NCBI GenBank assembly: GCA_963771045.1
Contig: CAVYRW010000004.1
Coordinates: 1,184,001 to 1,248,000 of the forward strand
Length of the DNA stretch: 64,000 bases
From: Waddliaceae bacterium
GTDB taxonomy: Bacteria > Chlamydiota > Chlamydiia > Chlamydiales > SLFE01
Direction of reading: 5' to 3'
Part shown: positions 8,301-61,338 of the stretch, in pieces
Position numbering within the stretch: position 1 is the stretch's first letter
How the letters are laid out: each line of letters opens with the position of its first letter
Notes under the pieces: generated by a model
What the model saw: the letters and a program-made list of their open reading frames with translations, nothing else
Database searches by the model: none
Told to the model about the DNA's origin: nothing
Translations under genes and position numbers: made by a program

Positions 8301-9789
8301 ATGCCTAACGATCCAACAAGAATCAGGACTTATTGGCATCCTTCAAATCATGAAAGACTTTCTTGCTATTTTAGAATCTGGCGGGCTTACGAGAAATCAA
8401 ACGTTTTATCCAATCAACATTGAAAGCCATTACCTTAAAATAATCTTTAGTACCGGCCACCCTCTTTCAAGACTTAGGGAATACACTGTAGCCACAATGG
8501 GCGCTGAAGATGCAGGCACTAGTATGAGTATCAAACAACCAATTCATAAGATTTGCGATGCGATCGCTGATTTTTTACACCAATTTGATAAGAACATAGC
8601 TTCTCATTCGGGTAATGCAGACAAACTGAAAAAGGATTTCCTATCCGAACTGACTTACAAATATGTTTATGACGCATCAAAAAGCAAGCCGGAAAAACCC
8701 GAAGATGGTCGAGGGGCATGGATCCTTATTGACACTGAAAGTGGAAAACCTGTTGAAAACCTTAATGATTTTAGAACCTTGATTTTAAAAGCACTTCCTT
8801 TTATCGAGCAGTCATTGGCTGAGCAATTACCCGCTCATGAACATGAAATTAAACAATTTATGCAAAGTGAAATTATCCCCTGGATTAATAGCGATCATTT
8901 TATTTGTACGATTTGGAATGATTTGTACTTGATGGTGCTAGAGGATTACAGCGTCGACTTTGACCGTCTTGCCGCCATCAATCCGATTCGTCATTATCAA
9001 AAACTTGGCAATACGCCATGGTGCCTTTTTCAAGGGGGGTTATCCGAAAGAGTCTTTAACACGTATTATGAAAGGAATGATATGAATGATTTTTCCGGCA
9101 GCCAATGCTTAAGCCAGGAGAGTCTTGTGAATTCTCTTTTGAATTTTATCCACAATTTACCGGTTGCTATCAAAGAAGCCTGCAAAAAGAACCCTCGCCA
9201 ACTCGTTTATCTGGGAATGCCGGGCCATGCCCTTTCTTTAAAACCACATAAAATCCTTAAATACTTGTCAAGTTATGAAAATAGCGACTCTCTTTTGTCA
9301 GCACTAAAAGAGCAAACAAAAAAGTGGCAAGAGGCTGAAATCACGCCCCAAGATCATAAGCAAATTTTTGATAACTTGGCGAAAGAAGCCACTGAAGAGC
9401 AAAAACCTGTATTAAAAGAAATGCTTCAAAATATGATCGAAAAACCATGTACTCTTTCAGAATACATTCAGATCTGCAAGAATAAATTACGCTCCAAGGC
9501 TTTATCGAAATTTCATTTGCAAAATATTTTATTAGCTCTCGCTTCGGAAATCGCCAGCCTTCCCCGAATGAGAAAAATCCGGCCAAAAGTAATTGAAATC
9601 GCCGATACTAACTGGCAGTCGCCAAGAAGTCATATGGCAATTACCGGCAACCCTGTAACCGGAAAGGCCATGATCGTACTAACAGATGAAAAGCATCAAC
9701 AATTCAAGCCCATAAATGAAGTTGCATTGCTTGGAAATTGGCAACTGCCGCGGGAAATCATCTTCCCCGATGAGTTTTCTATTAATTAG
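5338..9789 (+). CDS. Large hypothetical protein with a C-terminal putative Cys-His-Asp catalytic domain
   Basis: ~1,480-aa ORF; motifs RQSDVGSCFGT, PGHAL, IADTNW; start chosen from the AAGGA RBS. Confidence 0.8.
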   Translation: MTPELNNCFNALNQITQNHQNGNFDKNKLSKLFEQCLEGIVKEESRSKLSKEITILHRFLDTPLGQTIEMKDIPKYVADLLEQKRKQQQLKNNLLYRSLSKESRKIVKATIKKLASEEITRKVIEWAALFEKKDIKKCEHFCESHDKKLLMLSELWLEGGKDKVKAIVSLIKQLPDFKVNTSLENKVSFSSFALVYLLGEEKDYDNFSFKTKDFEKIKKSLSEKIRLIESLTQPQVLPLLKSCYLSFFQAIILLKEAPKLLQALAELSVTSYSSLPIYFSVYDKKLDESLTNSILPARLISLLGPQFLPLLNEFFHTMEPKRQRILLPLVDHLYRELKREHNNRGLIEKTGDILEKTLAYPNPELTDALAKLPKEKIPLWCQWIRASKVPSLVDFIEFLIKKNEKDLAGEIAPWADEKTFKQKLDLQFKNDPKSQKSYKSWMAQFKEDIPLGCNKLIFELLEISEKTPGLFASVMEIASKQHSPLSLISLNRILKEHSDQAILHRILSFSQKEFDFPLHLNLWKKQGLTPEICFELIDSIGEEKFTYIMRNSALHGPIFTQLGKALKQENHRLESIFKLPNDECLQMLEVLFPIILEQPRNLFSFFSLTATTGLKDSFIKELIDPEFRKLIIGLKKPLSPETYSQILSRLKSDPTYCHQLLRLCGPYQNTFSHLSKSRKLFESLSEIEKHLGLSHPVVDHLLHLFNVGDVDMANHYLKVAGEKKWDLLLRLVDMNRVSSNEDMTALFEYLENHNNEKLAGFVSSANAGAVKALLNLREETDKLLIERMQKGKHLNQLDRNLLLLHARGHKVMIDTLLKNPEHHLHIFKLISEGHIETAVCEFNGDAKEVFYDLETNHKSFEYVATIGQSPEKKRSDIAFALAHYLIDQEGGLHFGRIPQLQKKHLPISAECRSHVDRVLNLLLKNRDLAALLTAAPIPKVKSPQDIMVRKALNIHEDETITKRHIRALLLSAILTPTRQSDVGSCFGTCLTIQQESGLIGILQIMKDFLAILESGGLTRNQTFYPINIESHYLKIIFSTGHPLSRLREYTVATMGAEDAGTSMSIKQPIHKICDAIADFLHQFDKNIASHSGNADKLKKDFLSELTYKYVYDASKSKPEKPEDGRGAWILIDTESGKPVENLNDFRTLILKALPFIEQSLAEQLPAHEHEIKQFMQSEIIPWINSDHFICTIWNDLYLMVLEDYSVDFDRLAAINPIRHYQKLGNTPWCLFQGGLSERVFNTYYERNDMNDFSGSQCLSQESLVNSLLNFIHNLPVAIKEACKKNPRQLVYLGMPGHALSLKPHKILKYLSSYENSDSLLSALKEQTKKWQEAEITPQDHKQIFDNLAKEATEEQKPVLKEMLQNMIEKPCTLSEYIQICKNKLRSKALSKFHLQNILLALASEIASLPRMRKIRPKVIEIADTNWQSPRSHMAITGNPVTGKAMIVLTDEKHQQFKPINEVALLGNWQLPREIIFPDEFSIN

Positions 9790-10303: not shown

Positions 10304-10666
10304 TCAACCGTGAAGTGCGACAAATAGTGTAAAATTGAAAATGGCCAGAGATGGCAAGAGAAGGCATTGGATTGAAGATCCCTCTTCAAGGATCTCTTCA
10401 AAGAGCCCCTTAAATTCCCTCTGGGCCGTCTCGTCCCCTCCAACGAGTGGAGGCATCTCGATCGTGAATCCCAGGCTATCGTCATTGATGAATAAGCCGC
10501 TTTCCTCATCGTAGGACTGATAAGGTAAGATCGAAGCAAGAGTGTCAAAGGAAAAGACGCTTTCTTTGATCTCAGGCCTTTTGAGGAGCGATTCCTTGAT
10601 TCCCAGGTCAGGGTCACCAAAGAATCCGGCTATTCTCCTCCCCGCTTTACTCAAGCTATCAATCAT
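10304..10666 (-). pseudogene. traC: F-type conjugal ATPase TraC, N-terminal fragment
   Basis: LASILPYQSYDEESGLFINDDSLGF resembles the TraC N-terminus; follows traV; truncated after ~105 aa. Confidence 0.75.
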
Positions 10667-11019
10667 GGACTACACTCCCCTCCCCCACAGGTTTCTTGAA
10701 AGTAGATGTAGTGACCATCTGTTTTGGAACATCCAAACTCCTCCCCTTCAACCCATACTCGTTTGAGCATAGCATTACTGCCCACACTCCCGGGGTGAGT
10801 TCGGCACCGCCTTTCTTTGCAGTCAGTGCAAGAGGTTCTGGGGATTTTGCCGAGGAAAATATCTGGGCCCCCCTCAGGTGTTTCGATGATCATGCTTTGA
10901 ATTTCGGATACAGAGGTACAGGGAACACCCTTCCCCGGTGGACAGTCAAATTGGGTCTTGTATGCTTGGTAAGAGCAAAGCACGAGCGGAATCAAAAGCA
11001 GGAGTTTTCTAGCGTTCAT
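10663..11019 (-). CDS. traV: F-type conjugal lipoprotein TraV-like
   Basis: GGAGG RBS, signal-like N-terminus, FDCPPGKGVPCTSVS motif, directly upstream of traC. Confidence 0.7.
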   Translation of the reverse strand: MNARKLLLLIPLVLCSYQAYKTQFDCPPGKGVPCTSVSEIQSMIIETPEGGPDIFLGKIPRTSCTDCKERRCRTHPGSVGSNAMLKRVWVEGEEFGCSKTDGHYIYFQETCGGGECSP

Positions 11020-11219
11020 GAGCCTCCAGGGAATAGAATGCCTCAGTTGTTTCCAAATAGAATTCTTCATCCTCAGGATCTATATATCAATCACGACTAT
11101 TGATGTCTACATATATCTGTGTGTTTATGTATATTTTTGTTGTTTGCATTTTTACCGTTGAAATAAAAATTTCAATTATCTAGCTTTCAGATATTTAATA
11201 ATCTTTTTTATTAATCGAA

Positions 11220-13764: not shown

Positions 13765-16700
13765 ATGCGATCCCTTTTTCTTCTCTGCTGCTTGGGTTGG
13801 ATTTCGCTCTTTGCCGAAGATGATTGCGAAGATTTCACTCCATCATCACCTTTTGAAATTTCCGACTTGACATGCAGCAAAGAATTTCTTGTCGGGGGAT
13901 TGATCAATCCTTTAAGCGGCCAGATCTGCATCAATAAAACCGATCTGGTTGCCAAAGGCGCTCAGGATATTGTCATTAACAGAACATATATACCTCCTTT
14001 CCTCCCGGAAAAGCAGCACAAAAATCCGGACCTCGATAAGGCGCTCAGACATCAACAACTTTTTCGCAGTTATCGAGGATTTACAACACTGCCTCATCTT
14101 ACACTCAGATTGAAGTCAAATGGAAGGATACAAGTTGCATCTCAGAATGGCTCGCTTTTAGATTTTAAAATGACAAGCCGCGGAGACTATGTTTTAGACA
14201 GTATCCCTTATGGGATCAGCAATTATGCCGCCGGCAGGCCAGGGGGGCAGTTTGATGTCAGAAACATCAAGATCAACCGATCAGAAAATGAGATCGCCAT
14301 TCATTTTCCCGATGGCTGCAGGCGTGTCTATAACAAACAGAGTACCTCTTCATATACCTTAGGCAAAGAAATTTTACCGAGCGGCAAGATCATCAAATAT
14401 CATTATCAACATGGCGCTATCAGCCTGATCGAGAGCTTGGACCCCGGCGAAAAGCACATCTATGCCTCAGTTGAAGTCAAAGGATCGAAGGAGAAAGGGA
14501 AGCAGGAATTTTTCGCGTCAAGCGGCGCTTTCGCATCACATTCATATGAAACAAGAATGCTTCAATCCGAATGGAAGGACAATGGAAGTCGTTTTAAACA
14601 AGGACTCCGTTCCAAACTCTATTTGACGGCAGCAGAAGGCTCGTTTTTTGACAAAGAAGAGTTTTCGTATAGCGAGGATCTTTTTTTATCGGAATGCAGA
14701 AGCTCCCGTCTCCCATTTAAAAGTTTGAGCAAGATCACAAAAGCCCCAGATAACCAATATGACACTCGCGTGAAAAATCTTATCTTTGACACGTCCGATG
14801 ACACGTCTTTCATGGGAGTGGAAAACATTGAGTACTCTCCCCCCTTGCCGGGAAAGCTAAATGGAGAAACCCTGGTCGCTTATCAAGACGGCTCTAAAAT
14901 CGTTTATCGTTACACAGATCAATTGCTTCTCGAATCGGTAAAATCATTTCAACCGGATGGATCTCTTAAGAAAACAAAACTCTTTCACTGGGATGACAAC
15001 AATCGATTGTCAAGGATTCAGTTATTTGATAGCGGCGAAGAACTGCTCTATGAAAAGGCCTATGAATACGATGATTTTGGCAATCCGATTCTTGAAACGA
15101 TCACAGGAAATGCTTCCTACAGCATAAGAAGGGAATTCTCTCAGGATGGCATGAATCTGCTCTTGAAAGAACAAGAGGACAGCGGAAAAGAGACAGTTTA
15201 TACCTACCTTTCCGAAACCAACCTCCCGACATCAAAACTCACTTCAGAAAATGGCAACATTTTCCAAAGAGAATATTGGGAGTATGACGACTGTCATAAT
15301 TTGATCGGCAAAATTATTGATGATGGAAAATCTCCTCCGGCTGAAAGACGCATAACATCCTATACCCTTCGCCAAGAAGCGCCGTATCTCCATATGCCGG
15401 AATGGATCGAAGAAAAATGCGAAAAAATCCTGAAAAAAACTCATTTGATCTACGACCAATATGGCAATGTTTCGCAAGAGGATGTATATGACTCTGACGG
15501 AAATTTCCGGTATTCACGATTCAAGGAATACGACAAGAGAGGCAATTTAATTTCCGAAACCAACGCGCTAGGACAAACAGCCTACTACGAGTATGATCAA
15601 AATGGCAACCTTCTAACAGAAACCTCCTTATCCGGAAAACTGAAAAAGGAGTATACCTACGATCTTAGAGGACGGTGTTTAACTGAAACACATCGTGGAT
15701 CCAATGGCGAATTGAAAACTTTTCTTTACAAGTATGATAATAACGATCAACTGATCCAAAAGATCGTCAATGATTCACACATCACTCGCTATACCCTTGA
15801 TCCCATTGTCCTAAAACCGACCACCATCCAATATCCTTCAAACGTAAAAATCTGCAGACAATACGATGCTTTAGGACGCGAAACAGCCAAAACCGATCCT
15901 GAAGGATATACAACATACACCACTCGAAACCTCTACGGCTCTCCACTGCAAATCGTTCATCCCGATGGAACAGAGGAGAGGTTTTTATACTCAAAAGAAG
16001 GACATCTTTTAGAATATATCGACCAAGAAGGCAGCAAAACCGCCTACATCCGAGATATACTTGGCAGAGTTTTAAAAAAGACATTTTTTACAAAGGCAGG
16101 AGAAGAACTCGGCTCAAAATCTTTTGTCTACAATTCCTTTCACCTTCTGAAAGAAACCGATCTAGAGGGGCATGCCACCTCTTATCACTACGATGGAGCC
16201 GGTAGAAAAATCAGTGAGGAAAGAGAGGGGAGAATTACTGAATACTCCTATGACTCTCTGGGAAGATTGGCAACTGTTAAGAAAGATTCCCTTCTTCACC
16301 ACTACGAATATGACCTTCTCGATCGTATGATTCAAGAGACGAAAACCGATTTAGATGGAACAATTCTTTATCAAGTCGACTATGAATATGACGAAGATGG
16401 CAACCGCTCAGCAATTACCCGAAACCATGCCGCCGAAAAATTTTCATACGATGCTTTTGGCCGGATCACCGTTCGCAAAGACTATGAAGACAATACCATC
16501 GCTTATACCTATGATGACTGGTACGAAAATTCCTTTTTGAGAAAGACAGCCGTCGACCCCTCAGGCAAAACAACAGTCACTATTTATGACCCCTTTGAAA
16601 GGATGACATCCGAGCAACAGTTCGATCAAAATAAAGCGACGCTTCACTTTAAAGATTTAAAATATGATTCGAGAGGCAACCTGATCAAAATCAGTGAAGA

Positions 16701-18594
16701 TATTTATCAAAACGGCCGCTATCAGCGAACGCAAACCCTGACTTATGCCTATGACTCAATGAACCGCCTCCAATCCGAAACTCATGGCTTTGAAAGATCG
16801 ATCCACTATTCCTATCATCCTTCCGGCCGTTTAGCTTCAAAAACCCTGCCAAACGGAAAAGTTCTCAACTACGCCTATAACCCCTTAGGGTATTTAGAAT
16901 CTCTCCATTCTTCCGACGGTTCAATCAATTCCAATTTCCGCACGAACAAACTTGGCGATATCATCGAAGCCGTCGATATTAATCAAGCTTATTCCATAAC
17001 ACGAAACTTCGATCCCTTCGGCAATATTTTACGCGAGAAGACATCGGATGGCCTTGTCCTAGACAAGAAATACGACTGTTTCAACCGCCCCCTTGAGCTC
17101 GAATTTTCAGAAGGTTCTATAAAGTATGAATATGATCCCCTCTACCTTCGAACCGTTTCAAGATTCAATAGCCAAAAAGATCAGCTTTATACGCACACCT
17201 ATGACTGCTATGATCAATCGGGCCGCCTGCTTGAAGAATCGCTTATAGGCGAACTTGGCACAGCGAATTTCCAATATGACAAAAACGGGCAAAAAACGGC
17301 CTCATCTTGCGCCTATTTCGCTCAAACTTGCACCTATAACGAGATGGGTAACCTCATTGAATCAACAAGAGATCAAGCAATTCACTCTTATTCCTATGAT
17401 GCCCTTTCTCAGCTAACTTTTGAAAATGACACGACATATGCTTATGATTCCCTCTTTAATCGAACACAAAAAAATGACGAGGCATTTCAATACAATCAGC
17501 TTAACGAACTCCTTTCCAAAGGCGAGCAAAAATACCAATATGATCAATGCGGCAATCTGACCCATGACGGTAAAATGACCTACACATATGATCTTCTCAA
17601 TCGCTTGATCGAGGCAAAGGACGGCAGGCGTAAAATCACCTTTACTTACGATCCATTTGATCGAAGAATATCCAAGAAAGTGTCCCTATACAGCGCACAC
17701 GAAGAGCGCATCCTTAACGAAGAGATCTACTTTTATGACGGGCAAAATGAACTTGGCGCTTACACACTAGGCCATCAACTCAAGCAATTAAAAGTACCCG
17801 GAATACGAGCCTGCAAAGAATCCTGCCAACCCATTGCGATCGAGCTCCAAGACAGAGTCTTCGCCCCAATTCTCGACTGCCACGGGAATATACAAAAGCT
17901 TGTGGATATCGAATCAAAAGAAATTTCGCATGAATACAACTATTCGGCATTCGGAGATAACCTCAAAACTACCGAACCCTTGTACAATCCCTGGAGATAC
18001 GCAGGCAAACGCCTGGATCCCGAAACAGGCTTGATTTATTTCGGCAAGAGGTACTATAGCCCGGCTATTGGCCGCTGGCTGACAACCGATCCTGCCGGCA
18101 CTCGCGATTCCTCGAATCTCTACCAGTATCTTTTAAACAACCCCTTCCAATACTGCGATCCCGATGGGCAATGTATCTTCCTGATTGCCATACCTATAGG
18201 CGAAATCATTTTAGGGACAGCGACAGCGGAAGCGATCATTGGTGCAGTAGTGGGCGCCTTTTGCGCTTATTTCGCTTATGAGAATGTTCATTACGTAGAA
18301 GATTGGATGAATGATTGCAGCCGGGATGGGTCACCTTATATCTGGGATGATTTTGGTTGGAATCCCGAGGGACCCGCTGATTATGGATTTGAATGGAAAG
18401 GTAGTGGTCCTCCATCTAGTGGTGATGGAAACTGGGTTAAAGGAGATGAAAGGTTAAATCCCGATTTTGATCATGCTCCGCCAATAGGTCCTCATTGGGA
18501 TTATAAACCTGAAAGGAAACATGATGGATATCGCTTGTATCCGGATGGAAGATGCGAGCCAAAAAATAAAGGAAAAAGGAAAAAAGGTAAGTAA
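13765..18594 (+). CDS. rhs: Rhs/YD-repeat polymorphic toxin with N-terminal signal peptide and C-terminal GPHWDY toxin tip
   Basis: Many YD repeats; Rhs core NPWRYAGKRLDPETGLIYFGKRYYSPAIGRWLTTDP; PFQYCDPDG cleavage motif (18157-18168); tip resembles Ntox37 by recall. Confidence 0.93.
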   Translation: MRSLFLLCCLGWISLFAEDDCEDFTPSSPFEISDLTCSKEFLVGGLINPLSGQICINKTDLVAKGAQDIVINRTYIPPFLPEKQHKNPDLDKALRHQQLFRSYRGFTTLPHLTLRLKSNGRIQVASQNGSLLDFKMTSRGDYVLDSIPYGISNYAAGRPGGQFDVRNIKINRSENEIAIHFPDGCRRVYNKQSTSSYTLGKEILPSGKIIKYHYQHGAISLIESLDPGEKHIYASVEVKGSKEKGKQEFFASSGAFASHSYETRMLQSEWKDNGSRFKQGLRSKLYLTAAEGSFFDKEEFSYSEDLFLSECRSSRLPFKSLSKITKAPDNQYDTRVKNLIFDTSDDTSFMGVENIEYSPPLPGKLNGETLVAYQDGSKIVYRYTDQLLLESVKSFQPDGSLKKTKLFHWDDNNRLSRIQLFDSGEELLYEKAYEYDDFGNPILETITGNASYSIRREFSQDGMNLLLKEQEDSGKETVYTYLSETNLPTSKLTSENGNIFQREYWEYDDCHNLIGKIIDDGKSPPAERRITSYTLRQEAPYLHMPEWIEEKCEKILKKTHLIYDQYGNVSQEDVYDSDGNFRYSRFKEYDKRGNLISETNALGQTAYYEYDQNGNLLTETSLSGKLKKEYTYDLRGRCLTETHRGSNGELKTFLYKYDNNDQLIQKIVNDSHITRYTLDPIVLKPTTIQYPSNVKICRQYDALGRETAKTDPEGYTTYTTRNLYGSPLQIVHPDGTEERFLYSKEGHLLEYIDQEGSKTAYIRDILGRVLKKTFFTKAGEELGSKSFVYNSFHLLKETDLEGHATSYHYDGAGRKISEEREGRITEYSYDSLGRLATVKKDSLLHHYEYDLLDRMIQETKTDLDGTILYQVDYEYDEDGNRSAITRNHAAEKFSYDAFGRITVRKDYEDNTIAYTYDDWYENSFLRKTAVDPSGKTTVTIYDPFERMTSEQQFDQNKATLHFKDLKYDSRGNLIKISEDIYQNGRYQRTQTLTYAYDSMNRLQSETHGFERSIHYSYHPSGRLASKTLPNGKVLNYAYNPLGYLESLHSSDGSINSNFRTNKLGDIIEAVDINQAYSITRNFDPFGNILREKTSDGLVLDKKYDCFNRPLELEFSEGSIKYEYDPLYLRTVSRFNSQKDQLYTHTYDCYDQSGRLLEESLIGELGTANFQYDKNGQKTASSCAYFAQTCTYNEMGNLIESTRDQAIHSYSYDALSQLTFENDTTYAYDSLFNRTQKNDEAFQYNQLNELLSKGEQKYQYDQCGNLTHDGKMTYTYDLLNRLIEAKDGRRKITFTYDPFDRRISKKVSLYSAHEERILNEEIYFYDGQNELGAYTLGHQLKQLKVPGIRACKESCQPIAIELQDRVFAPILDCHGNIQKLVDIESKEISHEYNYSAFGDNLKTTEPLYNPWRYAGKRLDPETGLIYFGKRYYSPAIGRWLTTDPAGTRDSSNLYQYLLNNPFQYCDPDGQCIFLIAIPIGEIILGTATAEAIIGAVVGAFCAYFAYENVHYVEDWMNDCSRDGSPYIWDDFGWNPEGPADYGFEWKGSGPPSSGDGNWVKGDERLNPDFDHAPPIGPHWDYKPERKHDGYRLYPDGRCEPKNKGKRKKGK

Positions 18595-18598
18595 ATTC

Positions 18599-19264
18599 AT
18601 GAAAAAATGGAAGTTAAATTACACGACGGCATGGCCATATTTTAATAAGCATATAAAATCGGGAAATTCACTATCAAGATTTCTTATAGAAAAAATTGAT
18701 TTTAAAAAGGGACACTTTTTTACAATTCTTCCAGAAGATGCTCAAATTGAAAATATTGAGAATCTACGTTTCGGAGGAATTCTTCCACAACCTCCTATGA
18801 TGAAGTCCCCAGATAATAGAGGATATTGGCAATCAATACCGACAACTATCGAATCAATGGCAGATTTTATAAAAAATTTCTTGGAGCAAAATGACTTGCG
18901 TTATGGTTTGGTGGAAGACGTGTGTTATGGCCCAAATGATGAAGTAGTTTTAGAGTCAGAGGTCGAATATCTGCTTTATGATAAAGAGGTTTATTACTTT
19001 CTTCAAAAAAAAGTATCAACAGAAGAAATTGAACAAACTATCAGAATAGGGAATGCAAATTACCATCTACTCATTGTTTTGGGTGAAGGTGAAAGATTTA
19101 GAAATGAGGCCCTTCAATTTAGTGATTTTGAGCAAATTGCACAAGAAGCAGTATACATAGTTGGAAGTGCTTATGATAGTGAATCATATATAGTTTGGAA
19201 AAACGATGACAAGCTCGATCCTAATATGGAGAATTTCTTTAAGGAGAAGGATTATCAAAAGTGA
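18599..19264 (+). CDS. Putative immunity protein 1
   Basis: Starts 4 nt after the Rhs stop; AT-rich; family motifs GHFFTILP, GGILP, GSAYDSESYIVW. Confidence 0.8.
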   Translation: MKKWKLNYTTAWPYFNKHIKSGNSLSRFLIEKIDFKKGHFFTILPEDAQIENIENLRFGGILPQPPMMKSPDNRGYWQSIPTTIESMADFIKNFLEQNDLRYGLVEDVCYGPNDEVVLESEVEYLLYDKEVYYFLQKKVSTEEIEQTIRIGNANYHLLIVLGEGERFRNEALQFSDFEQIAQEAVYIVGSAYDSESYIVWKNDDKLDPNMENFFKEKDYQK

Positions 19265-19341
19265 AAATCAAATATATTTACGGGCCTATCACAGGACCAC
19301 ATTGGGATTATTATGATCCTCTCTGAGATGCTAAATTATAT

Positions 19342-19769
19342 AATGCGTTTTCCTGATTGCCATACCTATAAGCGAAATCATTTTAGGGACAGCAACAGCG
19401 GAAGCGATCATTGGTGCAGTAGTGGGCGCCTTTTGCGCTTATTTCGCTTATGAGAATGTTCATTACGTAGAAGATTGGATGAACAATTGCAGCCGGGATG
19501 GGTCACCTTATATCTGGGATGATTTTGGTTGGAATCCCGAGGGACCCGCTGATTATGGATTTGAATGGAAAGGTAGGGGTCCTCCATCTAGTGGTAAAGG
19601 GAACTGGGTTAAAGGAGATGAAAAGTTAAATCCCGATTTTGATCATGCTCCGCCAATAGGTCCTCATTGGGACTATGTTCCAGAAGAAAATCATGATGGT
19701 TATCGCTTGCATCCGGATGGAAGATGCGAGCCAAAAAATAAAGGAAAAAGGAAAAAGGAAAAAAGGTAA
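19342..19769 (+). pseudogene. Orphan Rhs C-terminal toxin module
   Basis: Repeat of ~18170-18594, offset ~1172 bp, starting right after the DPDG position; no Rhs body. Confidence 0.85.
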
Positions 19770-19777
19770 GTAGGTTC

Positions 19778-20443
19778 ATGAAAAAATGGAAGTTAAACTA
19801 TACGACGGTATGGCCATATTTTAAAGATCACATAGAATGGGGAAATTCACTATCAAGATTTCTTATAGAAAAAATTGATTTTAAAAAGGGACACTTTTTT
19901 ACAATACTTCCAGAAGATGCTCAAATTGAAAATATTGAGGATCTACGTTCTGGAGGAATTCTTCCACAACCTCCTATGATGAAGTCCCCAGATAATAAAG
20001 GATATTGGCAATTGATACCTTCAACTGTTGACTCGATGACAGAATTCATAAAAAAATTTTTAGAACAAAATAACTGTCGTTATGGTTTGGCAGAGGATGT
20101 GTGTTACGGTCCAAATGATAAATTAGTCATAGAGTCAACTGTAGAATATCTACTTTATGATAAAGAGGTTTATTACTTTCTTCAAAAAAAATTATCAAAA
20201 GAAGAAATTAGAAAAACTATCAGAAGAGCTAATGCAACTTACCATTTACTCATTGTTTTGTGCGAAGGCGAAAAATTTAATAATAAAGGTCTTCAATTTA
20301 GCAATTTTGAACAGATTGCACGAGATGCCATATACATAATTGGTAGTGCTTACGACCGGGAATCATATATAGTTTGGAAAAACGATGACAAACTCGATCC
20401 AAATATGGAGAATTTCTTTCAGGAAACGGGACATCAAAAGTGA
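19778..20443 (+). CDS. Putative immunity protein 2
   Basis: Close paralogue of 18599-19264, downstream of the orphan toxin. Confidence 0.8.
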   Translation: MKKWKLNYTTVWPYFKDHIEWGNSLSRFLIEKIDFKKGHFFTILPEDAQIENIEDLRSGGILPQPPMMKSPDNKGYWQLIPSTVDSMTEFIKKFLEQNNCRYGLAEDVCYGPNDKLVIESTVEYLLYDKEVYYFLQKKLSKEEIRKTIRRANATYHLLIVLCEGEKFNNKGLQFSNFEQIARDAIYIIGSAYDRESYIVWKNDDKLDPNMENFFQETGHQK

Positions 20444-20537
20444 AAATCAAATATATTTACGGGCCTATCACAGGACCACATTGGGACTTTTTTGGTCCTC
20501 TCTAAGATGCTAAATTATATTCAGGAGGTGTTTGGAT

Positions 20538-21038
20538 ATGGAATTAAAAATAAATAAACATAAGCTAGATCCAAAGAAAACTATACCTTTTTTTGTAGAT
20601 AATATTCGTTGTGGAAATGCTTTATCCGAAGAAGTTATTAAAGCCATTGATTTTGAGAAAGGGGAATTTTTTACATTTCTGCCCAGTAACGCAGAAATAG
20701 ATCGAATCTATAATTTTAAATGGGGAGGAATATTCCCAAACGCATTTCAAAGCTTAGAAAGCTGTTCAGGAATCAAAGATCAACCTCGCATTGAGCGGAA
20801 AACTGGTATATCAGATCAGTTCCATGTTGATTTTATTAAAAATTATTTAATCGAAAGTAGAAAAAGGCTTATGATTATTGATAGTTTTAATGAACAGCCT
20901 GATGATCCTCATCTAGGAATAGAAAATGTAAATATGTTTTCATATAAAAATGAAATTTATTATGCTTTGGACAACAAAAATGGTAGAGAAGAAATCGATG
21001 AGGCACTTTGTGTAGCAGATCTCATTTGGCATTCTTAA
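20538..21038 (+). pseudogene. Putative immunity protein 3, truncated by the IS91-like element
   Basis: AGGAGG RBS; GEFFTFLP and GGIFP motifs; stops at IWHS where paralogue 60010-60642 continues. Confidence 0.75.
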
Positions 21039-22643
21039 GTTATTTATCGACCTCGCAAACCTGAAAAAACGGTTCTTTTTAACGTCATAAAAAGACACTA
21101 CAAGACATGGTACAAAAACTCTGAAAATCCCATTCCCAAATATGTAGACAAGGAGTTCCATAAGTATCTGGAATGCGGCATATTAGCTAATGGATTCGCG
21201 TGTGCTCATTGTTCTGACTGCAACAAAGACATATTCATCGCTTTTTCCTGTAAAGGCCGGGGAATCTGCCCCTCCTGCAACACACGAACAATGGTTGAAA
21301 CAGCTGCGCACCTCGTTGAAAATGTCATTCCGCCCATTCCCATCAGACAATTTGTGATCAGTTTTCCTATGCGGATTAGGCATTACCTTCAAACGTACAA
21401 AATCCTCCAAACCGTTTTAAATATTGTCGTCGATGAAATTCGAAAGAGGCTTATCATATGCAGTCCGGATATCATAGATCCTTAAAATCGGTGTCATTAG
21501 CTTCATCCAGTATTTTGGAAAGACACTAAATTTCCATCCTCATTTCCATCTTATTGTGGCTGATGGCCTCTTTAGCAAAGATGGCAGCGACCTTTTATTT
21601 CACGAGGCCTCATTGACTCCTGATGATATTGCGGACACCCAAGATTGCATAAGTAAAAGAGTGCTCAGGTATTTTGGGAGAAAGGGCTGGTTTGATAAGC
21701 AGACGATAAAAAGGATGCTCTCTAATGAAAACAGCGGATTTTCTCTCGATGCTAAAGTAAGAGTCCCCTCTTGGGATCGAAAAGGCTTAGAGCGTTTGAT
21801 AAGATACTGCGGCCGCCCTAGCTTTGCCAGCGAGAACTTGCGATGGAATGGTCCTTGGGTTCATTATCGCCTTCCTAAACTTAACTCACACCGGCAAAAC
21901 CTTTGTCCAAATTGAGCCTTTGGAATTTATCGAGAGGATTTCCCGGTTCATCCCCTATCCCCGCCGACACCTTCGTCATTATCACGGAGTTTTTGCTCCT
22001 AATTCTCCTTTAAGGAAGAAGGTGGCTGCCAGCGCTCAAAAACGCCCTGTATCCAGCATCCAAAAAAATTTACAAGAGTCTTCGAAAAAAGTTATAAAGG
22101 TTTCTTTCGACTGGGCAAAGCTCATAGCACGTATTTACAAAACCGATCCGTTGCTTTGTGAATGTGGTAATAAAATTAAAATTACCTCATTTGTCATCCA
22201 TACAGTTGAAATCAGACGCATATTAAACCGCTTAGGCTGCAGGGCCGAGATCCCGAAGTTCGACCAGCCCTACCCTCCTCCTGAATTGAATATCTGCCAA
22301 CTTCTGCCGTGGACTGAGGATGGATTTTCCCCGTTAGAAGATCGCACTCTAGGAGAATGGGGCCTTAGGTCCCCCCACTCATAGATCCATCCAATTGGGC
22401 AGACAATATCGACCCCCCTTTTTGGGAAGATTGAACCATATACGATGATCGCTTCAGAAGGGGCCGATACCTTTTGCTCTCATTTCTCCCAAAATCATGT
22501 CATATCTCTAACAAATCAGGAAAAAAACACGAATTTGAAGAAAATTGTCTGATTATTGTTCAAAAATAAAGAAATCAAAGCCCACCTTTCTGACAATCCG
22601 ATCTAGGATAAGGCCGTAGACATGCTTGATCTTCCTATACATT
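21037..22643 (+). mobile_element. IS91/ISCR-like element (longest copy, slightly 5'-truncated)
   Basis: Near-identical to 11251-11758 and 3795-5230; same two +1 frameshifts; same TTCCTATACATT end. Confidence 0.88.
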
Positions 22644-53817: not shown

Positions 53818-56800
53818 ATGCGGATGCTTTTACTTTTCTGCTGCCTGAGTTGGATTTCGCTTTTTGCCGAAGATAATTGCGAAGATTTCACTCCGTCATC
53901 ACCTTTTGAAATTTCCGACTTGACATGCAGCAAAGAATTTCTTGTTGGGGGATTTGTCAATCCTTTAAGCGGGCAGATCTGCATCAATAAAACCGATCTG
54001 GTTGCCAAAGGCGCTCAAGATATTGTCATTAACAGAACATATATACCCCCTTTTCTCCCGACAAAGCAGCGCAAAAATCCGGGCCTCGATAAGGCGCTCA
54101 GACATCAGCATCTTTTTCGCTGCTATCGGGGATTTGAAACGCTTCCTCATCTTTCATTGAGATTGAAATCAAACGGAAGGATACAAGTTGCTTCCCAGAA
54201 TGGTTCGATTTTAGATTTTAAAATGACAAAAAGCGGCGATTATGTTTTAGACAATCCCCCTTATGGAATCAGCAATTATGCCGCCGGCAGGTCAGGCGGA
54301 CAGTTTGATGTCAGAAACATCAAGATCAACCGATCAGCAAATGAGATCACCATCCATTTTCCCGATGGCTTCAGGCGAATCTATAACAAACAGAATACCC
54401 ATTCCTATACCTTAGGCAAAGAAATTTTACCGAGCGGCAAGGTCATCAAATATCATTATCAACATGGCGCTATCAGCCTGATTGAGAGCTTGGATCCCAA
54501 AGAAAAGCACATCTATGCCTCAGTCGAAGTCAAAGGGTCGAAGGAGAAAGGAAAGCAGGAATTTTTCGCGTCAAGCGGTGCTTTTGCGGCACATTCATAC
54601 GAAACAAGAATGCTTCAATCTGAATGGAAGGAAAATGAAAGTCATTTTAAACAAGGACTCCTATCCAAACCCTATTTAACGGCAGCAGAAGGCTCATTTT
54701 TCGACAAAGAAGAGTTTTCATATAGCGACGATTTTTTTCTAACTGAGTGCAAGAGCTCCCACCTCCCATTTAAAAGTTTGAGCAAGATCACAAAAACCCC
54801 GGATAACCAGTATCACACTCGCGTGAAAAATCTTATTTTTGACACGTTCGATAACGCATCTTTCATGGGAGTGGAAAACATTGAGTATAGTCCCCCCTTG
54901 CCGGGAAGGCTGAACGGAGAAACCCTGGTCGCTTATCAAGACGGCTCTAAAATTGTTTATCGCTACACCGATCAACTGCTTCTCGAATCGGTAAAATCAT
55001 TTCAACCGGATGGCACCCTTAAGAAAACAAAACTCTTTCGCTGGGATGAAAACAATCGATTGTCAGGGGTTCAGTTATTTGAAGGCGGCGATGAGCTGCT
55101 CTATGAAAAAACCTATGAATACGATGATTTTGGCAATCCGATTTTTGAAACCATAGCTGGAAATGTTTCTTACAGCATAAGAAGGGAATTCTCTCAGGAT
55201 GGGATGAACCTGCTCCTCAAAGAGCAAGAGGAAAGCGGAAAAGAGACTGTTTATACCTATCTTCCCGAGACCAACCTTCCGACATCAAAACTTACCTCTG
55301 AAAATGGCAACATTTTACAAAAAGAGTATTGGGAGTATGACTACTGCCATAATTTGATTCGCAACATTATTGATGAGGGAAAATCCCCTGCGGCTGAAAG
55401 GCGTATTACCTCATATACCCTTCGCCAGGAAGCCCCCTATCTCCATATGCCGGAATGGATTGAAAAAAAATACCTCGAAAGAGAATGCGAAGAAATCCTG
55501 AAAAAAACTCATTTGATCTACGACCAATATGGCAATGTTTCGCAAGAGGATGTATATGATTCTGATGGAAATTTCCGGTATTCAATTTTCAAGGAATACG
55601 ACAAGCGGGGAAATTTAATTTCCGAAACCAACGCGCTAGGACAAACAGCCTGCTATGAGTATGATCAAAATGGAAACCTCCTTTCAGAAACCTCTTTATC
55701 AGGAAAACTCAAAAAGGAATACACCTACGATCTTAGAGGGCGGCGTTTAACTGAAACACACACCGGATCCAATGGCGAACTGAAAACTTTTCTTTACAAA
55801 TATGACAATAACGATCAGCTGATTCAAAAGACCGTCAATGATTCAAAGATCACTCGCTATACTCTTGATCCCGTTGTTTTAAAACCAACCACCATCCAAT
55901 ATCATTCGGACGTAAAAATTTGCAGACAATACGATGCTTTAGGACGCGTAACAGCCAAAACAGATCCTGAAGGGCATACAACATATATCTCCCGAAACCT
56001 CTACGGATCTCCACTGAAAATCGTTCATCCCGACGGAACAAAGGAGAAGTATTCATACTCAAAAGAAGGACATCTTTTAGAGTATATCGACCAAGAAGGC
56101 AACAAAACCGCCTATATCCGAGATATACTTGGCAGAGTTTTTAAAAAGACATTTTTTACCCAAGCAGGTGAAGAAATCGGCTCGGAATCTTTTGTCTACA
56201 ATTCCTTTCACCTCCTGAAAGAAACCGATTTAGAGGGGCATACCACCTCCTTTCACTACGACGGAGCCGGTAGAAAAATCAGAGAGGAAAGAGAAGGGAG
56301 GATTACTGAATACTCCTACGACTCTCTGGGAAGATTGGCAACTGTTAAGAAGCATACACTTCTTCACCACTACGAATACGACCTTCTCGATCGTGTAATT
56401 CGAGAGACAAAAACCGATTTAGATGGAAAAGTGCCTTACCAGGTCGGCTATGAATATGACGAAGACGGCAGCCGCTTAGCAGTCACCCGAAACCACGCCG
56501 CCGAAAAATTTTCATACGATGCTTTTGGCCGGATCGCAGCCCACAAAGATTATGAAGAGAGTACCATCGCTTATACCTATGATGATTGGTACGAAAATTC
56601 CTTTTTGAGAAAGACAGCTGTCGACCCCTCAGGCAAAACAACAGTTTCTGTTTATGATCCCTTTGAAAGGTTAACATCCGAGCAAATGTTTGATAAGCAT
56701 GGAACAACGCTTCACTTTAAAGAAATGGAATACGACCTTCGAGGCAACCTGATCAAAATCAGCGATGATGTTTATCAAAACGGCCATTATCAAAGAACGC

Positions 56801-58239
56801 AAACCCTGACTTATGCCTATGACTCAATGAATCGCCTCCAGTCGGAAACTCATGGCTTCGAAAGATCGATCCGCTATACCTATCATCCATCCGGCCGTTT
56901 AGCTTCAAAAACATTGCCAAACGGAAAAGTTCTCAACTATACCTATAATCCCTTAGGGTATTTAGAATCCGTCAATTCTTCCGACGGTTCAATCAATTTC
57001 CATTTCAGAACAAACAAACTTGGCGATATCATCGAAGCCGTCGATATCAATCAAGCTTACTCCATAACACGGGAACTCGATCCCTTCGGCAATATTTTAA
57101 GCGAGAAGACATCGGATGGCCTTGTCCTAGACAAGAAATACGACTGTTTCAACCGCCCTCTTGAGCTCGAATTTTCAGAAGGTTCTATAAAATATGAATA
57201 TGACCCCCTCTATCTTCGAAGCGTTTCAAGATTCAATAGCCAAAAAGAACAGCTTTATACACACACCTATGACCGCTATGATCAATCGGGCCGCCTGCTT
57301 GACGAATCGCTCATAGGCGAACTTGGCCAAGTGAATTTCCAATATAACAAAAACGGGCAAAAAACGGCCGCAGCTTGCGCCTATTTCGCTCAAACTTGTA
57401 CATACAACGAGATGAGAAACCTCATCGAATCAACAAGAGATCAAGCAACCCAATCTTATTCTTATGACGCCCTTTCTCAGCTAACTTCTGAAAATGACGA
57501 GGCATATGCTTATGATTCCCTCTTAAATCGAACCCAAAAAAATGGCGAGGCATTACAGTACAATCAGCTTAACGAACTCCTTTCCAAAGGAGAGCAAACA
57601 TACAAATACGATCAGTGCGGCAATCTGACTCATGACGGTAAAATGACCTACACCTATGATCTGCTCAATCGTTTGATCGAGGCAAAGGACTGCAGGCATA
57701 AAATCACCTATGCTTACGATCCATTTGATCGAAGAATATCCAAGAAAGTGTCTTTATACAGCGCACACGAAGAGCGCGCCCTGAGTCAAGAGATCTACTT
57801 CTATGACGGGCAAAATGAACTTGGCGCCTACACACCCGGCCATCAACTCAAGCAATTAAAAGTACCCGGAATACGGGCCTGCAAAGAATCCTGCCATCCC
57901 ATTGCTATCGAACTCCAAGACAAAGTCTTCGCCCCTATCCTTGATTGCCACGAAAATATTCAAAAGCTTGTGGATATTGAATCAAAACAAATTTCGCATG
58001 AATACGACTATTCAGCATTCGGAGATAACCTCAAAACCACCGAATCCCTGTACAATCCCTGGAGATACGCAGGAAAGCGACTGGATCCCGAAACAGGCCT
58101 GATCTACTTCGGCAAGCGCTTCTATAGCCCAGCCATTGGCCGCTGGCTGACAACCGATCCGGCCGGGACCCGCGATTCTACAAATCTCTACCAGTATCTT
58201 TTCAACAACCCCTTCCAATACTGTGATCCCGATGGGTAA
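53818..58239 (+). CDS. rhs: Rhs/YD-repeat protein, paralogue of 13765-18594, ending in TAA right after DPDG
   Basis: Collinear and highly similar to Rhs1, including the signal peptide and ~60 bp upstream. Confidence 0.92.
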   Translation: MRMLLLFCCLSWISLFAEDNCEDFTPSSPFEISDLTCSKEFLVGGFVNPLSGQICINKTDLVAKGAQDIVINRTYIPPFLPTKQRKNPGLDKALRHQHLFRCYRGFETLPHLSLRLKSNGRIQVASQNGSILDFKMTKSGDYVLDNPPYGISNYAAGRSGGQFDVRNIKINRSANEITIHFPDGFRRIYNKQNTHSYTLGKEILPSGKVIKYHYQHGAISLIESLDPKEKHIYASVEVKGSKEKGKQEFFASSGAFAAHSYETRMLQSEWKENESHFKQGLLSKPYLTAAEGSFFDKEEFSYSDDFFLTECKSSHLPFKSLSKITKTPDNQYHTRVKNLIFDTFDNASFMGVENIEYSPPLPGRLNGETLVAYQDGSKIVYRYTDQLLLESVKSFQPDGTLKKTKLFRWDENNRLSGVQLFEGGDELLYEKTYEYDDFGNPIFETIAGNVSYSIRREFSQDGMNLLLKEQEESGKETVYTYLPETNLPTSKLTSENGNILQKEYWEYDYCHNLIRNIIDEGKSPAAERRITSYTLRQEAPYLHMPEWIEKKYLERECEEILKKTHLIYDQYGNVSQEDVYDSDGNFRYSIFKEYDKRGNLISETNALGQTACYEYDQNGNLLSETSLSGKLKKEYTYDLRGRRLTETHTGSNGELKTFLYKYDNNDQLIQKTVNDSKITRYTLDPVVLKPTTIQYHSDVKICRQYDALGRVTAKTDPEGHTTYISRNLYGSPLKIVHPDGTKEKYSYSKEGHLLEYIDQEGNKTAYIRDILGRVFKKTFFTQAGEEIGSESFVYNSFHLLKETDLEGHTTSFHYDGAGRKIREEREGRITEYSYDSLGRLATVKKHTLLHHYEYDLLDRVIRETKTDLDGKVPYQVGYEYDEDGSRLAVTRNHAAEKFSYDAFGRIAAHKDYEESTIAYTYDDWYENSFLRKTAVDPSGKTTVSVYDPFERLTSEQMFDKHGTTLHFKEMEYDLRGNLIKISDDVYQNGHYQRTQTLTYAYDSMNRLQSETHGFERSIRYTYHPSGRLASKTLPNGKVLNYTYNPLGYLESVNSSDGSINFHFRTNKLGDIIEAVDINQAYSITRELDPFGNILSEKTSDGLVLDKKYDCFNRPLELEFSEGSIKYEYDPLYLRSVSRFNSQKEQLYTHTYDRYDQSGRLLDESLIGELGQVNFQYNKNGQKTAAACAYFAQTCTYNEMRNLIESTRDQATQSYSYDALSQLTSENDEAYAYDSLLNRTQKNGEALQYNQLNELLSKGEQTYKYDQCGNLTHDGKMTYTYDLLNRLIEAKDCRHKITYAYDPFDRRISKKVSLYSAHEERALSQEIYFYDGQNELGAYTPGHQLKQLKVPGIRACKESCHPIAIELQDKVFAPILDCHENIQKLVDIESKQISHEYDYSAFGDNLKTTESLYNPWRYAGKRLDPETGLIYFGKRFYSPAIGRWLTTDPAGTRDSTNLYQYLFNNPFQYCDPDG

Positions 58240-58656
58240 TGCGTCTTCCTGATTGCCATACCTATAGGCGAAATCATTTTAGGCACAGCAACAGCGCAAG
58301 CAATTATCGGAACGACTGTAGGCGCCGCTTGCGCATACTTTGCTTATGAGAATGCTCATTACGTAGAAGATTGGATGAATCAACACTATCGAGATAATCC
58401 AAGCCCTTATAGCTGGGACGATCTTGGATGGAATCCTGAATGCCCTAACCTTGATGGTTTTGAGTGGAAAGGTAGAGGCCCTCCATCGAGTGGTAAAGGG
58501 AGTTGGTTTAATGAAGAAACAGGAGAATCTTATCATCCCGATTTGGAACATGGTCCTCCAGATGGCCCTCATTGGGACTATTCACCGGATGATTCTCACG
58601 GAAAAAAACATAGAGGATATCGGATAAAACCGGATGGCAGTTGTGAACCTAAATAA
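58240..58656 (+). other. In-frame C-terminal toxin tip (GPHWDY family), uncoupled by the TAA
   Basis: CVFLIAIPIGEIILG...GFEWKGRGPPSSGKGSWFNEETGESYHPDLEHGPPDGPHWDY in the Rhs frame. Confidence 0.85.
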
Positions 58657-58673: not shown

Positions 58674-59300
58674 ATGAAGATGAAAAAGTACAACTTAAAT
58701 TACAATAAAGTTATCAATTATTTTCTCGATCATATTGATTGGGGAAACAGTTTATCAGCTTATTTTCTTAAAAAAATGAATTTTTCTAGTGGTAATTTTT
58801 TCACAATATTACCTGATAACGCCAAGTTTGAACAAATTGAAGATTTAAAAAATGGGGGGATACTACCACCTGCTGGACCTTGTTTGCCAATTGATAATGG
58901 AAGCGGAACGTACCAAGCCGTTCCGAATACAAAAGAAGCTTTGGTTGATTTTGTTAAAGATTTTCTTAATCAGAATTCTTTTAATTATTGTATTGGAGAA
59001 GATGTTCTTCGCGGGCCTACAGACAAAATTGTTAAGCAGTCCGCTGAAAAATTTCTCCTTTATAACAATGAGATCTATTATTTACTAGATATGCAGAATT
59101 CTATCGATGAAATAGAGGATGTTATTTGGAAGTCTAATGCCTTGTATCATATGTTTTTTGTATTAACTAATGGTTCTCATAATTATACAGGATTTTTGAG
59201 ATATGAAGATTTTGATTTAATCTATAGCAATGTCAATTATATTATTGGTAGCGCATATGATGGTGAGTCCTATATTATTTGGGAAAAAACCAAAGAATGA
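58674..59300 (+). CDS. Putative immunity protein 4
   Basis: GNFFTILP, GGILP, GSAYDGESYIIW. Confidence 0.8.
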   Translation: MKMKKYNLNYNKVINYFLDHIDWGNSLSAYFLKKMNFSSGNFFTILPDNAKFEQIEDLKNGGILPPAGPCLPIDNGSGTYQAVPNTKEALVDFVKDFLNQNSFNYCIGEDVLRGPTDKIVKQSAEKFLLYNNEIYYLLDMQNSIDEIEDVIWKSNALYHMFFVLTNGSHNYTGFLRYEDFDLIYSNVNYIIGSAYDGESYIIWEKTKE

Positions 59301-59483: not shown

Positions 59484-60007
59484 CCAGTATCTTTTCAACA
59501 ACCCCTTCCAATACTGTGATCCCGATGGGCAATGCGTTTTCCTGATTGCTATACCGATAGGCGAAATCATTTTGGGCACAGCAACAGCGTGAAGCGATCA
59601 TTGGCGCTGTTGCTGCTGCGATTACAACTTATGCTGTTTATGAGGGAACTAATTATGTTGAAAATTGGGTGAATCAAAGCTGGGACGCAGCCTACGATGA
59701 TATATTTATGCAGGTTTGGAAAGACAATGTTAATGAAGATCTTGAAAAACGACGACGAGAAAAGGAAAGGGACTCCCGTTATAAAGATTTAAATGAGAAT
59801 CCTGAAAGCTATCCTGATGGATTTGAATGGAAGGGTAATGGGCCACCAGGTAGTGGCCGTGGTAATTGGCATAATCCTAATACAGGTGAAAGGTTGCATT
59901 GGGATTATAATCACGCTCCGCCGATTGGACCTCATTGAGATTATTTTGGTCCCGAAGGTAAGGCTAGAATTGACCCTAACGGAAATTGGGATTGGAGACC
60001 AAGTTAA
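59484..60007 (+). pseudogene. Orphan Rhs core-end plus toxin module
   Basis: Repeats QYLFNNPFQYCDPDGQ; extra T at 59590; GFEWKG...GPH*DY with TGA at 59936-59938. Confidence 0.82.
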
Positions 60008-60009
60008 CT

Positions 60010-60642
60010 ATGAAAATTATAAAACATAGGTTGGATTTTAATAAGACTTATCCTTTTTTCATCGATCATATCAAATGTGATAAAACGCTATCTCAGGAAG
60101 TTGTAAAGAGGATTGATTTTAAACAAGGTGACTTTTTTACAATTTTACCAAAGAATGCCGTGATAAGTCGACTCTATAAATTTTCTGAAGGTGGTATTAT
60201 CCCGCTTTTGGTTCTTGAAGGAGAAACGCGTTTCAACTTAAGTGGTGTTGCTTTTACTCCTAGAGAAATTAGGTCAACAGATGATGATCTCGTAGGTTTT
60301 ACTATAAAATATTTGAAAACAAATTCTAAAAGATTTCTTTTTGTTGATAGTTATAATGAAAGTCCTAATGATTCTCATATGGGTATAGAAAATACAAAAC
60401 CGCTCTTTTATAAAAGTGAAGTGCATTATGTTTTGGATCAGGACAATTCCGCGAATGAAATTAAAAACGCAATTTATAAATCAGACGTTATTTGGCACTC
60501 TCTTATTTTATTAGTAGAGAAGTTTGATGAATTTCCTAGTTATTTTGATGATGATATATTTTCTCAAATATGCTCAAAAATCAAATATGTAATTTTAGGT
60601 GCATACGATGGTGAATCCTACATTATTTGGCAAAAACGATGA
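60010..60642 (+). CDS. Putative immunity protein 5
   Basis: GDFFTILP, GGIIP, GAYDGESYIIW; most like immunity 3. Confidence 0.8.
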   Translation: MKIIKHRLDFNKTYPFFIDHIKCDKTLSQEVVKRIDFKQGDFFTILPKNAVISRLYKFSEGGIIPLLVLEGETRFNLSGVAFTPREIRSTDDDLVGFTIKYLKTNSKRFLFVDSYNESPNDSHMGIENTKPLFYKSEVHYVLDQDNSANEIKNAIYKSDVIWHSLILLVEKFDEFPSYFDDDIFSQICSKIKYVILGAYDGESYIIWQKR

Positions 60643-60741: not shown

Positions 60742-60850
60742 TTGAAGATTATTGGAGTCAAATATGACTTTGATAAATACTATTTAACCTTTGAAAAGAC
60801 ATTCGATGATTTTGATAATCATATAAAATGTGGAAATATGCTTTCAGCAG
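60742..60850 (+). pseudogene. N-terminal fragment of a sixth immunity paralogue
   Basis: YLTFEKTFDDFDNHIKCGNMLS aligns with LDFNKTYPFFIDHIKCDKTLS; cut off just before a transposase. Confidence 0.55.
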
Positions 60851-61338
60851 CAATTCCCGTCGACGATTTTTCTCGTGTAAGTAAAATTTTTCTTTCGTAA
60901 ACTTTGGACCTTAACTTTTACTAGAGAAGGTCCTTTGTATGAATATTTCCGTAAGAAAATCTCTGATGCGCCGATGCTTTGATTTCGACAATCTACCACC
61001 AGTTCCGAAAGATCTCAGATCCACGAGAACTTCCCAGTACAGCCCCTATCTCGTTCACAGATGTGTTGATGTCGGGTCTTGCTGTCTTCGGTCTAAAATT
61101 CCCCTCCTTGCTTCAATACGATCAAAATCGCAAAACTCTTGATGACAATTTACGAAATCTTTATCACATAAATCCCCCCCCTTCAGATACATACCTTAGA
61201 GAACGCTTAGATGAACTCGATCCAATGTTTGTGCACCCCGCATTTTGCAAGATTTTCGCTAAGCTTCACAGAGGAAAGTGCCTGGAAGAATTCAAGTTCC
61301 TAGAGGGACGCTATCTTTTGTCCCTTGATGGGTAAGCG

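Follow-up and report, generated by a model that had tools for sequence, protein, structure and literature searches.

We analysed a 64,000-nucleotide stretch of a Waddliaceae bacterium of the phylum Chlamydiota (assembly GCA_963771045.1, contig CAVYRW010000004.1, positions 1,184,001 to 1,248,000, forward strand), hereafter called the window, which carries two Rhs loci. The gene Rhs1 encodes an Rhs shell with an exchangeable C-terminal tip that resembles the toxin domain Ntox37, and it is accompanied by a stock of partner genes of a single family. We consider it probable that these components together form a secreted toxin–immunity system for competition among related chlamydiae. The same gene order and motifs recur in other chlamydial genomes, tips have been exchanged between genomes and the tip type is linked to the gene that follows it.

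The Rhs1 gene and its Ntox37-like tip

The open reading frame (ORF) of Rhs1 (13765..18594, + strand) is intact, encodes a 1609-amino-acid (aa) Rhs/YD protein and starts with MRSLFLLCCLGWISLFA|EDD behind a GGAGG site. A profile scan matched Pfam RHS_repeat (E 2.5e-54) and the Rhs-associated core TIGR03696 at aa 1393–1469, with 85.9 bits against a cut-off of 32.5, and the presence of both YD repeats and core fits an Rhs/YD polymorphic toxin system. PAAR, VgrG and other trafficking families were not found in Rhs1 at E ≤ 1, in line with an earlier note made from this DNA, which had described the protein as free of PAAR and VgrG domains. The core (17941..18171, +) contains the motifs RYY..GR, DPAG (D1442) and DPDG (D1465); the last occupies aa 1465–1468 (nucleotides 18157–18168). 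By analogy with what is established for Rhs proteins, the core is predicted to cleave itself after DPDG and to release the tip. The hydrophobic segment and the tip with the motif GFEWKG...HAPPIGPHWDY that the earlier note placed behind the DPDG site were both recovered, and the tip measures 96 aa.

The first 17 residues (13765..13815, +) form a predicted Sec signal peptide of the signal peptidase I (SPI) type, according to a purpose-written leader rule that was drafted after viewing the sequences. This rule was passed by 34 of 41 Rhs homologues (three of 44, L019, L030 and L038, were dropped because they had no anchor motif), compared to 134 of 820 control ORFs of the genome. The N-terminal region that follows (13816..14964, +) is kept across the phylum and matches no Pfam family in the Rhs1 copy; in Rhs2, the shell gene of the second locus, it gave a DUF6531 match at E 0.06. 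Between DPDG and the tip lies a mostly hydrophobic segment of about 45 aa (aa 1469–1513; 18169..18303, +), which may act as a membrane-entry module. A hydrophobic segment follows a DPxG-type motif in all 41 chlamydial tips compared below, with a maximum of 1.5–2.5 on the Kyte–Doolittle scale over 19 aa. Since it is 60–85% identical across unrelated tip clusters (15 pairs), it travels as a module separate from the tip.

Tip 1 (aa 1514–1609; 18304..18594, +) was assigned as Ntox37-like from profile, model and conservation. The window copy matches Ntox37 (PF15535) weakly, with 21–22 bits and thus below the curated cut-off of 27.8, and two chlamydial relatives pass this cut-off (L029 with 27.9 and L044 with 35.6 bits). 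The profile matches 88/88 tip homologues at E ≤ 0.05, in agreement with the Ntox37 domain that the earlier note expected after DPDG. The Atlas gives Ntox37 for the tip at 0.91 and also lists Ntox21 at 0.89; a search for Ntox21 matched 0/4 and 0/351 genomes, with its control likewise silent. The modelled tip is a five-strand sheet with a predicted local distance difference test score (pLDDT) of 84 and fits the all-beta Ntox37 fold. Conserved residues are E49, D54, H57, H64 and R77 in tip numbering, of which H64 is invariant. We take the Asp-x2-His order of the tip to resemble that of colicin E3. Searches with the tip returned no PDB sequence match, no significant fold match and no match in plasmids, and when the window tip was compared by hhalign with six further tip clusters from chlamydiae, no alignment was significant (best probability 2%). 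The closest toxin fold of the same size was 4NTQ, a CdiA-CT of E. cloacae (Z 3.7, root mean square deviation 4.2, 67 aligned), and the RNase domain of colicin E3 reached Z 2.6–2.7.

Tip exchange and the partner gene family

The N-terminal 383 aa of Rhs1 served as query against 300 chlamydial genomes. The shell N-terminus was present in 47 genomes at E ≤ 1e-35 and in 111 at E ≤ 0.001, where the weak matches may represent a more distant Rhs family, and in 0/29 genomes of the smallest-genome family (f4; 1.0–1.4 Mb), which is probably Chlamydiaceae. Long open Rhs frames occur in dozens of chlamydial genomes. Forty loci from 36 genomes, picked among the best matches with long frames, were compared together with two paralogues of the present genome; 41 of these 42 had core and tip (L028, which had no core, was dropped). 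The 41 tips fall into 11 clusters, most of which correspond to a single downstream-gene cluster. One tip cluster departs from this pattern by having two partner clusters, and two of the partner clusters are each common to two tip clusters; two loci with no downstream gene in view (L043, L045) were dropped from the pairing counts. The window tip type is followed by the window partner family in 10/10 loci from 8 genomes, four of these loci coming from this genome and its congener, versus 0/29 loci with other tips. In 80 loci of the tip across many phyla, the partner family is the next gene in 37.

A second, unnamed family of about 80–95 aa with the motif DWR...HxHC.FC is next in 36 of the 78 tip loci that have a downstream gene (L061, L073, L095, L106 and 32 more, in Bacillota, Bacteroidota and Planctomycetota); two members gave no NCBIfam match. 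Ntox24 matches some of the chlamydial tips, either weakly or right at the cut-off, and one of the partners was recognised as Imm53. A tip type with the motif GH..H[YW]H..NP (L017, L018, L021, L032, L036, L041, L042, L045, L048, L049) is equally common in chlamydiae, has no Pfam match and has its own partner family.

Exchange of the tip is most visible in the congener G249. Its Rhs1 core is 91–100% identical per block to that of the window, the tip block is 63% identical and the first partner is different; the same core with another tip is direct evidence of tip displacement. The congener carries six partner genes, among them near-identical orphan copies of immunity 1 and of immunity 2, the latter together with tip 2.

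The gene directly behind Rhs1 is immunity-like gene 1 (18599..19264, +; 221 aa), assigned from gene order, model and predicted complex. It belongs to an unnamed family of about 210 aa that counts 764 cluster representatives at E ≤ 0.001 and is present in 37/301 genomes of the phylum. Among 139 members no Pfam family was shared and no immunity family was matched; Imm32, the Ntox37 partner listed in 2012, was not matched by any of them. The partner model is confident (pLDDT 94.7), and searches with the family gave no PDB sequence match, no Foldseek match and no Z ≥ 5 among 48,161 chains, with Atlas matches to hypothetical clusters only. Such failed searches do not prove a new fold.

The predicted complex of tip and partner scored 0.84 versus 0.00 for the best control, runs agreed in at least 84% of contacts and the pLDDT of the partner in the complex was at least 83. 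The mark used for this score was reached by 116/157 solved versus 2/215 mismatched pairs. This modelling supports binding of tip and partner and, together with gene order, it backs the toxin–immunity pairing that the earlier note had claimed. The predicted interface includes D54, H57, D66 and R77 of the tip. All seven differences between tips 1 and 1b, the latter an orphan copy described below, fall in the interface (7/37 versus 0/43 residues, p 0.003), and the differences between their partners are found at 13/36 interface versus 27/172 other positions (p 0.007). Comparison with the paralogue on contig C4 gave 8/37 versus 2/43 for the tip and 14/36 versus 35/172 for the partner. The ratio of nonsynonymous to synonymous substitution rates (dN/dS) was 0.19 for cores, 0.25 for partners and 0.40 for tips.

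Gene 1 is followed by an 88-bp scrap of a tip end with a GPHWDYY remnant (19254..19341, +), by orphan tip 1b (19342..19769, +; 92% to tip 1), which has no ATG or ribosome-binding site (RBS) and begins one codon past the DPDG position, by immunity-like gene 1b (19778..20443, +; 221 aa, 80% to gene 1) and by a second copy of the tip scrap (~20440..20520, +). Positions 18170–19341 and 19342–20520 are a tandem duplication of the tip, gene and scrap unit (1172 bp, 89% identical). Immunity-like gene 1c (20538..21038, +) is truncated to 166 aa, compared to 220 aa in the congener, and is cut by an insertion sequence (IS), of which ISCR/IS91-like transposase remnants were identified by family match (21037..22384, +); the junction sequence of this insertion recurs at 11251. 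The order of immunity genes, orphan toxin and scrap in the earlier note was thus correct, but it overlooked the IS cut in the third immunity-like gene. Upstream of the Rhs1 locus, an F-type traC fragment and a gene that is presumably TraV-like (10304–11070, −), located beside an ISCR remnant at 11220, are the trace of a conjugative element. A 1496-aa protein encoded at 5299–9789 (+) matches no NCBIfam family and is a possible host-directed effector.

The second locus shares the plan of the first, as the earlier note had stated, except for a feature that it missed: Rhs2 (53818..58239, +; a 1473-aa shell, 88% to Rhs1) ends with an in-frame TAA directly past DPDG, and its hydrophobic segment and Ntox37-like tip 2 (58240..58656, +; profile match and sequence) lie behind this stop. 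They are followed by immunity-like gene 2 (58674..59300, +; 208 aa), a broken orphan core end with tip 2b that has a frameshift and a stop (59485..59938, +), immunity-like gene 2b (59986..60642, +) and the remnant of a further immunity-like gene (60760..60873, +), beyond which IS genes begin. The stop lies at the same junction sequence that is found at orphan starts; recombination may have left it as a footprint, or it may stem from a point mutation or an assembly error. In public contigs from three soil-metagenome runs of one study, the two contigs that cross this position represent a paralogue or a relative.

The genome (2.57 Mb, 5 contigs, 90.6% complete) contains 11 Rhs cores, including four carriers of the window's Rhs family and other Rhs families. 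The C4 minus-strand paralogue retains its N-terminus. Twelve partner-family genes were counted against the four carriers, some of them beside broken tips or no tip. Within this genome the window-family tips all represent alleles of a single toxin family, and their partners likewise belong to a single family, so that the polymorphism is allelic here. A second Rhs array, broken by IS91 (G000:C3:1-14500, L005), combines several distinct tips with small genes downstream, one of which is Imm53-like by eye; unlike the window family, this array is truly polymorphic. Two further Rhs genes with hydrophobic N-termini (G000:C4:2034944-2042963, L004; G000:C2:29960-34729, L006) end in HSQG/HSLG tips, which we take to be alpha/beta-hydrolase-like. 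The genes downstream in L004 start with hydrophobic leaders, which suggests that immunity is periplasmic there; a duplicate of the cassette lies behind them.

Export, mode of action and alternative explanations

In the mechanism that we propose, the 17-aa leader would direct Rhs1 through Sec into the periplasm, where the folding YD shell is predicted to enclose the last 141 aa of the protein and the core to cut after DPDG. The export that follows is unlikely to involve a type VI secretion system (T6SS): searches of the genome, which is 90.6% complete, recovered no TssC, VgrG or PAAR, while the controls gave matches. In the phylum TssC occurs in 10/300 genomes (strong matches in G038, G030, G066, G071, G096, G110, G154, G170, G224 and G275), in 1/47 strong shell carriers and in 6/111 carriers at E ≤ 0.001. 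The Sec export proposed in the earlier note agrees with the leader predicted by our own rule; for the outer membrane, where that note had left the route blank, the operon of a type II secretion system (T2SS) present in the genome is a candidate. Because neither a T6SS gene nor a dedicated partner gene for export was found, we infer that the chlamydial T2SS moves Rhs across the outer membrane, a step that we regard as evenly balanced. No shared upstream gene was found in 24 loci, besides one synteny pair and one Rhs–Rhs match, and no conserved MafA-like upstream gene was found at the chlamydial loci. TpsB (ShlB) was not found in the genome, though the control was also silent, and there is no such neighbour at the loci; the carrier type of Rhs1 is Rhs, not filamentous haemagglutinin (FHA).

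The released piece may cross the inner membrane of the target by means of the hydrophobic 45 aa. The beta-sheet tip could then act as an RNase with a fold like that of colicin E3/CdiA-ECL, which is the weakest step of the mechanism and in our view somewhat doubtful. The cytoplasmic partner of about 210 aa is predicted to bind over the conserved residues of the tip and to neutralise it allele by allele, and orphan cassettes would provide immunity to the alleles of neighbours as well as spare tips for recombination. The surplus of partners and the divergence of alleles at the interface are more easily reconciled with a defence against the toxin versions of neighbours than with a host target. The interbacterial competition suggested by the earlier note is supported in this way, with the difference that kin, i.e., related chlamydiae, are more likely targets than co-infecting bacteria from unrelated groups.

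Several observations weigh against this reading. GspF is present in 297/300 genomes of the phylum, including 29/29 of the Rhs-less family f4; since it is near-universal, co-occurrence gives the T2SS no specific support. Frameshifts interrupt the secretin genes of both the T2SS and the type III secretion system (T3SS) (G000:C4:123000-131800, 213450-217200); they are probably assembly errors or indels, in the T2SS because the T3SS secretin pieces show them too. In our judgement the shell of ~180 kDa is a large cargo for a T2SS. The fold scores of 4NTQ and colicin E3 tie with those of unrelated beta-sheets in a wide search, the invariant H64 lies outside the listed interface, and the enrichment of differences at the interface was counted over all residues, buried and exposed alike, among kin that are not independent. 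Some copies look silenced, given the stop in Rhs2, the IS cut in gene 1c and, in the Rhs1 orthologue of the congener, ATA as start codon in an otherwise open frame (L011:1983-1985).

The absence of T2SS-specific linkage and the large cargo also favour a variant in which the toxin–immunity function is the same and export differs: after Sec the shell would stay periplasmic or surface-bound and reach rivals via outer-membrane vesicles or lysis. Among teneurin-like proteins, RHS toxins of the Sec type have been described that lack an obvious delivery machinery (PMC13018210). We consider this variant unlikely, though it is the best of the alternatives.

A host-directed role of the tip, which would be freed into the vacuole or host cytosol while the partner protects the producer only, is less likely again. 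The phylum is obligate intracellular, and the common view of bacteria with this way of life is that their toxins target the host and that they seldom fight each other. A basic tail ends tips 1, 1b and that of the C4 minus-strand paralogue, and Zhang et al. (2012) regard the host as the target of most toxins that intracellular bacteria make (PMC3482391). However, self-protection needs one partner per toxin, whereas 12 are present for four carriers, several of them beside no intact tip. Furthermore, alleles diverge at the interface, the basic tail is missing from most tips and the same tip–partner pair is found in loci titled as free-living phyla.

It is improbable that the loci belong to an island in decay, dispersed by IS elements and without a present function. 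Several copies are flanked or interrupted by such elements, and the Rhs2 stop and the ATA start of the congener would agree with decay, but dN/dS values of 0.19–0.40, the intact Rhs1 with its RBS and the long frames in dozens of genomes argue against it. Slightly more improbable still is that the hydrophobic segment itself kills by membrane disruption with the beta-sheet tip as accessory. In favour of this, membranes are permeabilised by a hydrophobic fragment from the C-terminus of a bacterial teneurin-like protein (PMC13018210). Against it, the downstream gene tracks the tip cluster and not the segment common to unrelated tips, the predicted complex has the partner bound to the tip, and three non-chlamydial carriers have an Ntox37-like tip without such a segment.

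Relation to known systems and significance

Table 2 of Zhang et al. (2012; PMC3482391) already lists Ntox37 in chlamydiae with T2SS/Sec export, RHS repeats and Imm32. The RHS Ntox37 toxins of this T2SS/Sec class share with Rhs1 the signal peptide, RHS repeats, Ntox37 tip, orphan cassettes and polyimmunity as far as they are described there. The same source pairs Ntox37 with Imm32, whereas the chlamydial partner described here matches no Pfam family. It also states, in its section on intracellular bacteria, that immunity genes are mostly lacking in these (Waddlia is named), with Odyssella and a URI toxin of Simkania as exceptions; in contrast, toxin–immunity pairs recur here over many chlamydial families.

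Effectors of the T6SS (RhsA, 7Q97; 8H8A, 7PQ5, 8QJA) share the YD shell, DPxG core, variable tip and adjacent immunity gene. Rhs1 differs from them by the absence of PAAR and VgrG and of T6SS genes, by its N-terminal leader and by the hydrophobic segment after DPDG. Teneurin-like proteins (9IFO, 9PT5) have a Sec-type RHS/YD shell, an encapsulated variable toxin and a downstream immunity gene in common with Rhs1, and for them Sec-type RHS toxins with immunity have been shown; the available text contains 0 mentions of chlamydiae (PMC13018210). Rhs1 matches these proteins over the last 230–300 aa of the shell only, and no lipoprotein or wall anchor was seen.

Neisseria MafB is not known to have an Rhs shell. 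Bacillus WapA resembles Rhs1 in signal peptide, polymorphic tips, orphan cassettes and kin competition, and faces no outer membrane. MafB shares a signal peptide followed by a lineage-specific N-terminal region, polymorphic tips, orphan cassettes and kin competition, as summarised in PMC3482391, but has MafA upstream, where the chlamydial Rhs loci have no shared gene. The CdiA-CT of E. cloacae (4NTQ) and colicin E3 (1E44, 4UDM) share a small antiparallel beta-sheet with the tip, at 8–10% identity and with scores within noise, and the partner of ~210 aa had no fold match. Toxin–antidote modules proposed for antagonism between intracellular bacteria, as here, were described as CRCT/CRCA in Rickettsia; in the available text these are mostly degraded or stand-alone tips (PMC9111745), whereas full-length carriers are common across chlamydiae.

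In the literature searched, no description of the present system in chlamydiae was found beyond Zhang et al. (2012) and one row, naming RHS proteins, in a table of outer-membrane clusters predicted for chlamydiae (PMC2811131), although Additional file 1 of Zhang et al. may list such loci or the partner family; the text available for 10.1101/2021.10.19.465003 has no chlamydial mention. The class and the chlamydial Ntox37 were thus catalogued in 2012, while prevalence, immunity family and swappable hydrophobic module were not found in the literature that was searched.

Taken more broadly, these data lead us to propose tentatively, at a little below an even chance, that environmental chlamydiae engage in widespread T6SS-independent kin warfare in shared host cells. 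They would use a self-sufficient, Sec/T2SS-exported Rhs capsule, the freed cargo of which joins a swappable membrane-entry module to many uncharacterised toxins, together with a large, undescribed immunity family of unmatched fold that tracks toxin alleles, and the smallest-genome family, probably Chlamydiaceae, would be without the system. The loci provide a test case for Gram-negative Rhs delivery without a T6SS. Their single matched allele series, which is open to assays in E. coli, offers a first functional handle on Ntox37, and their immunity family, with 764 sequence clusters, has neither a Pfam nor a fold match. If the proposal is true, recombining toxin–immunity systems in at least a sixth of the sampled chlamydial genomes would mean that their protist or animal hosts are routinely infected by more than one strain and that strains routinely exclude each other there.

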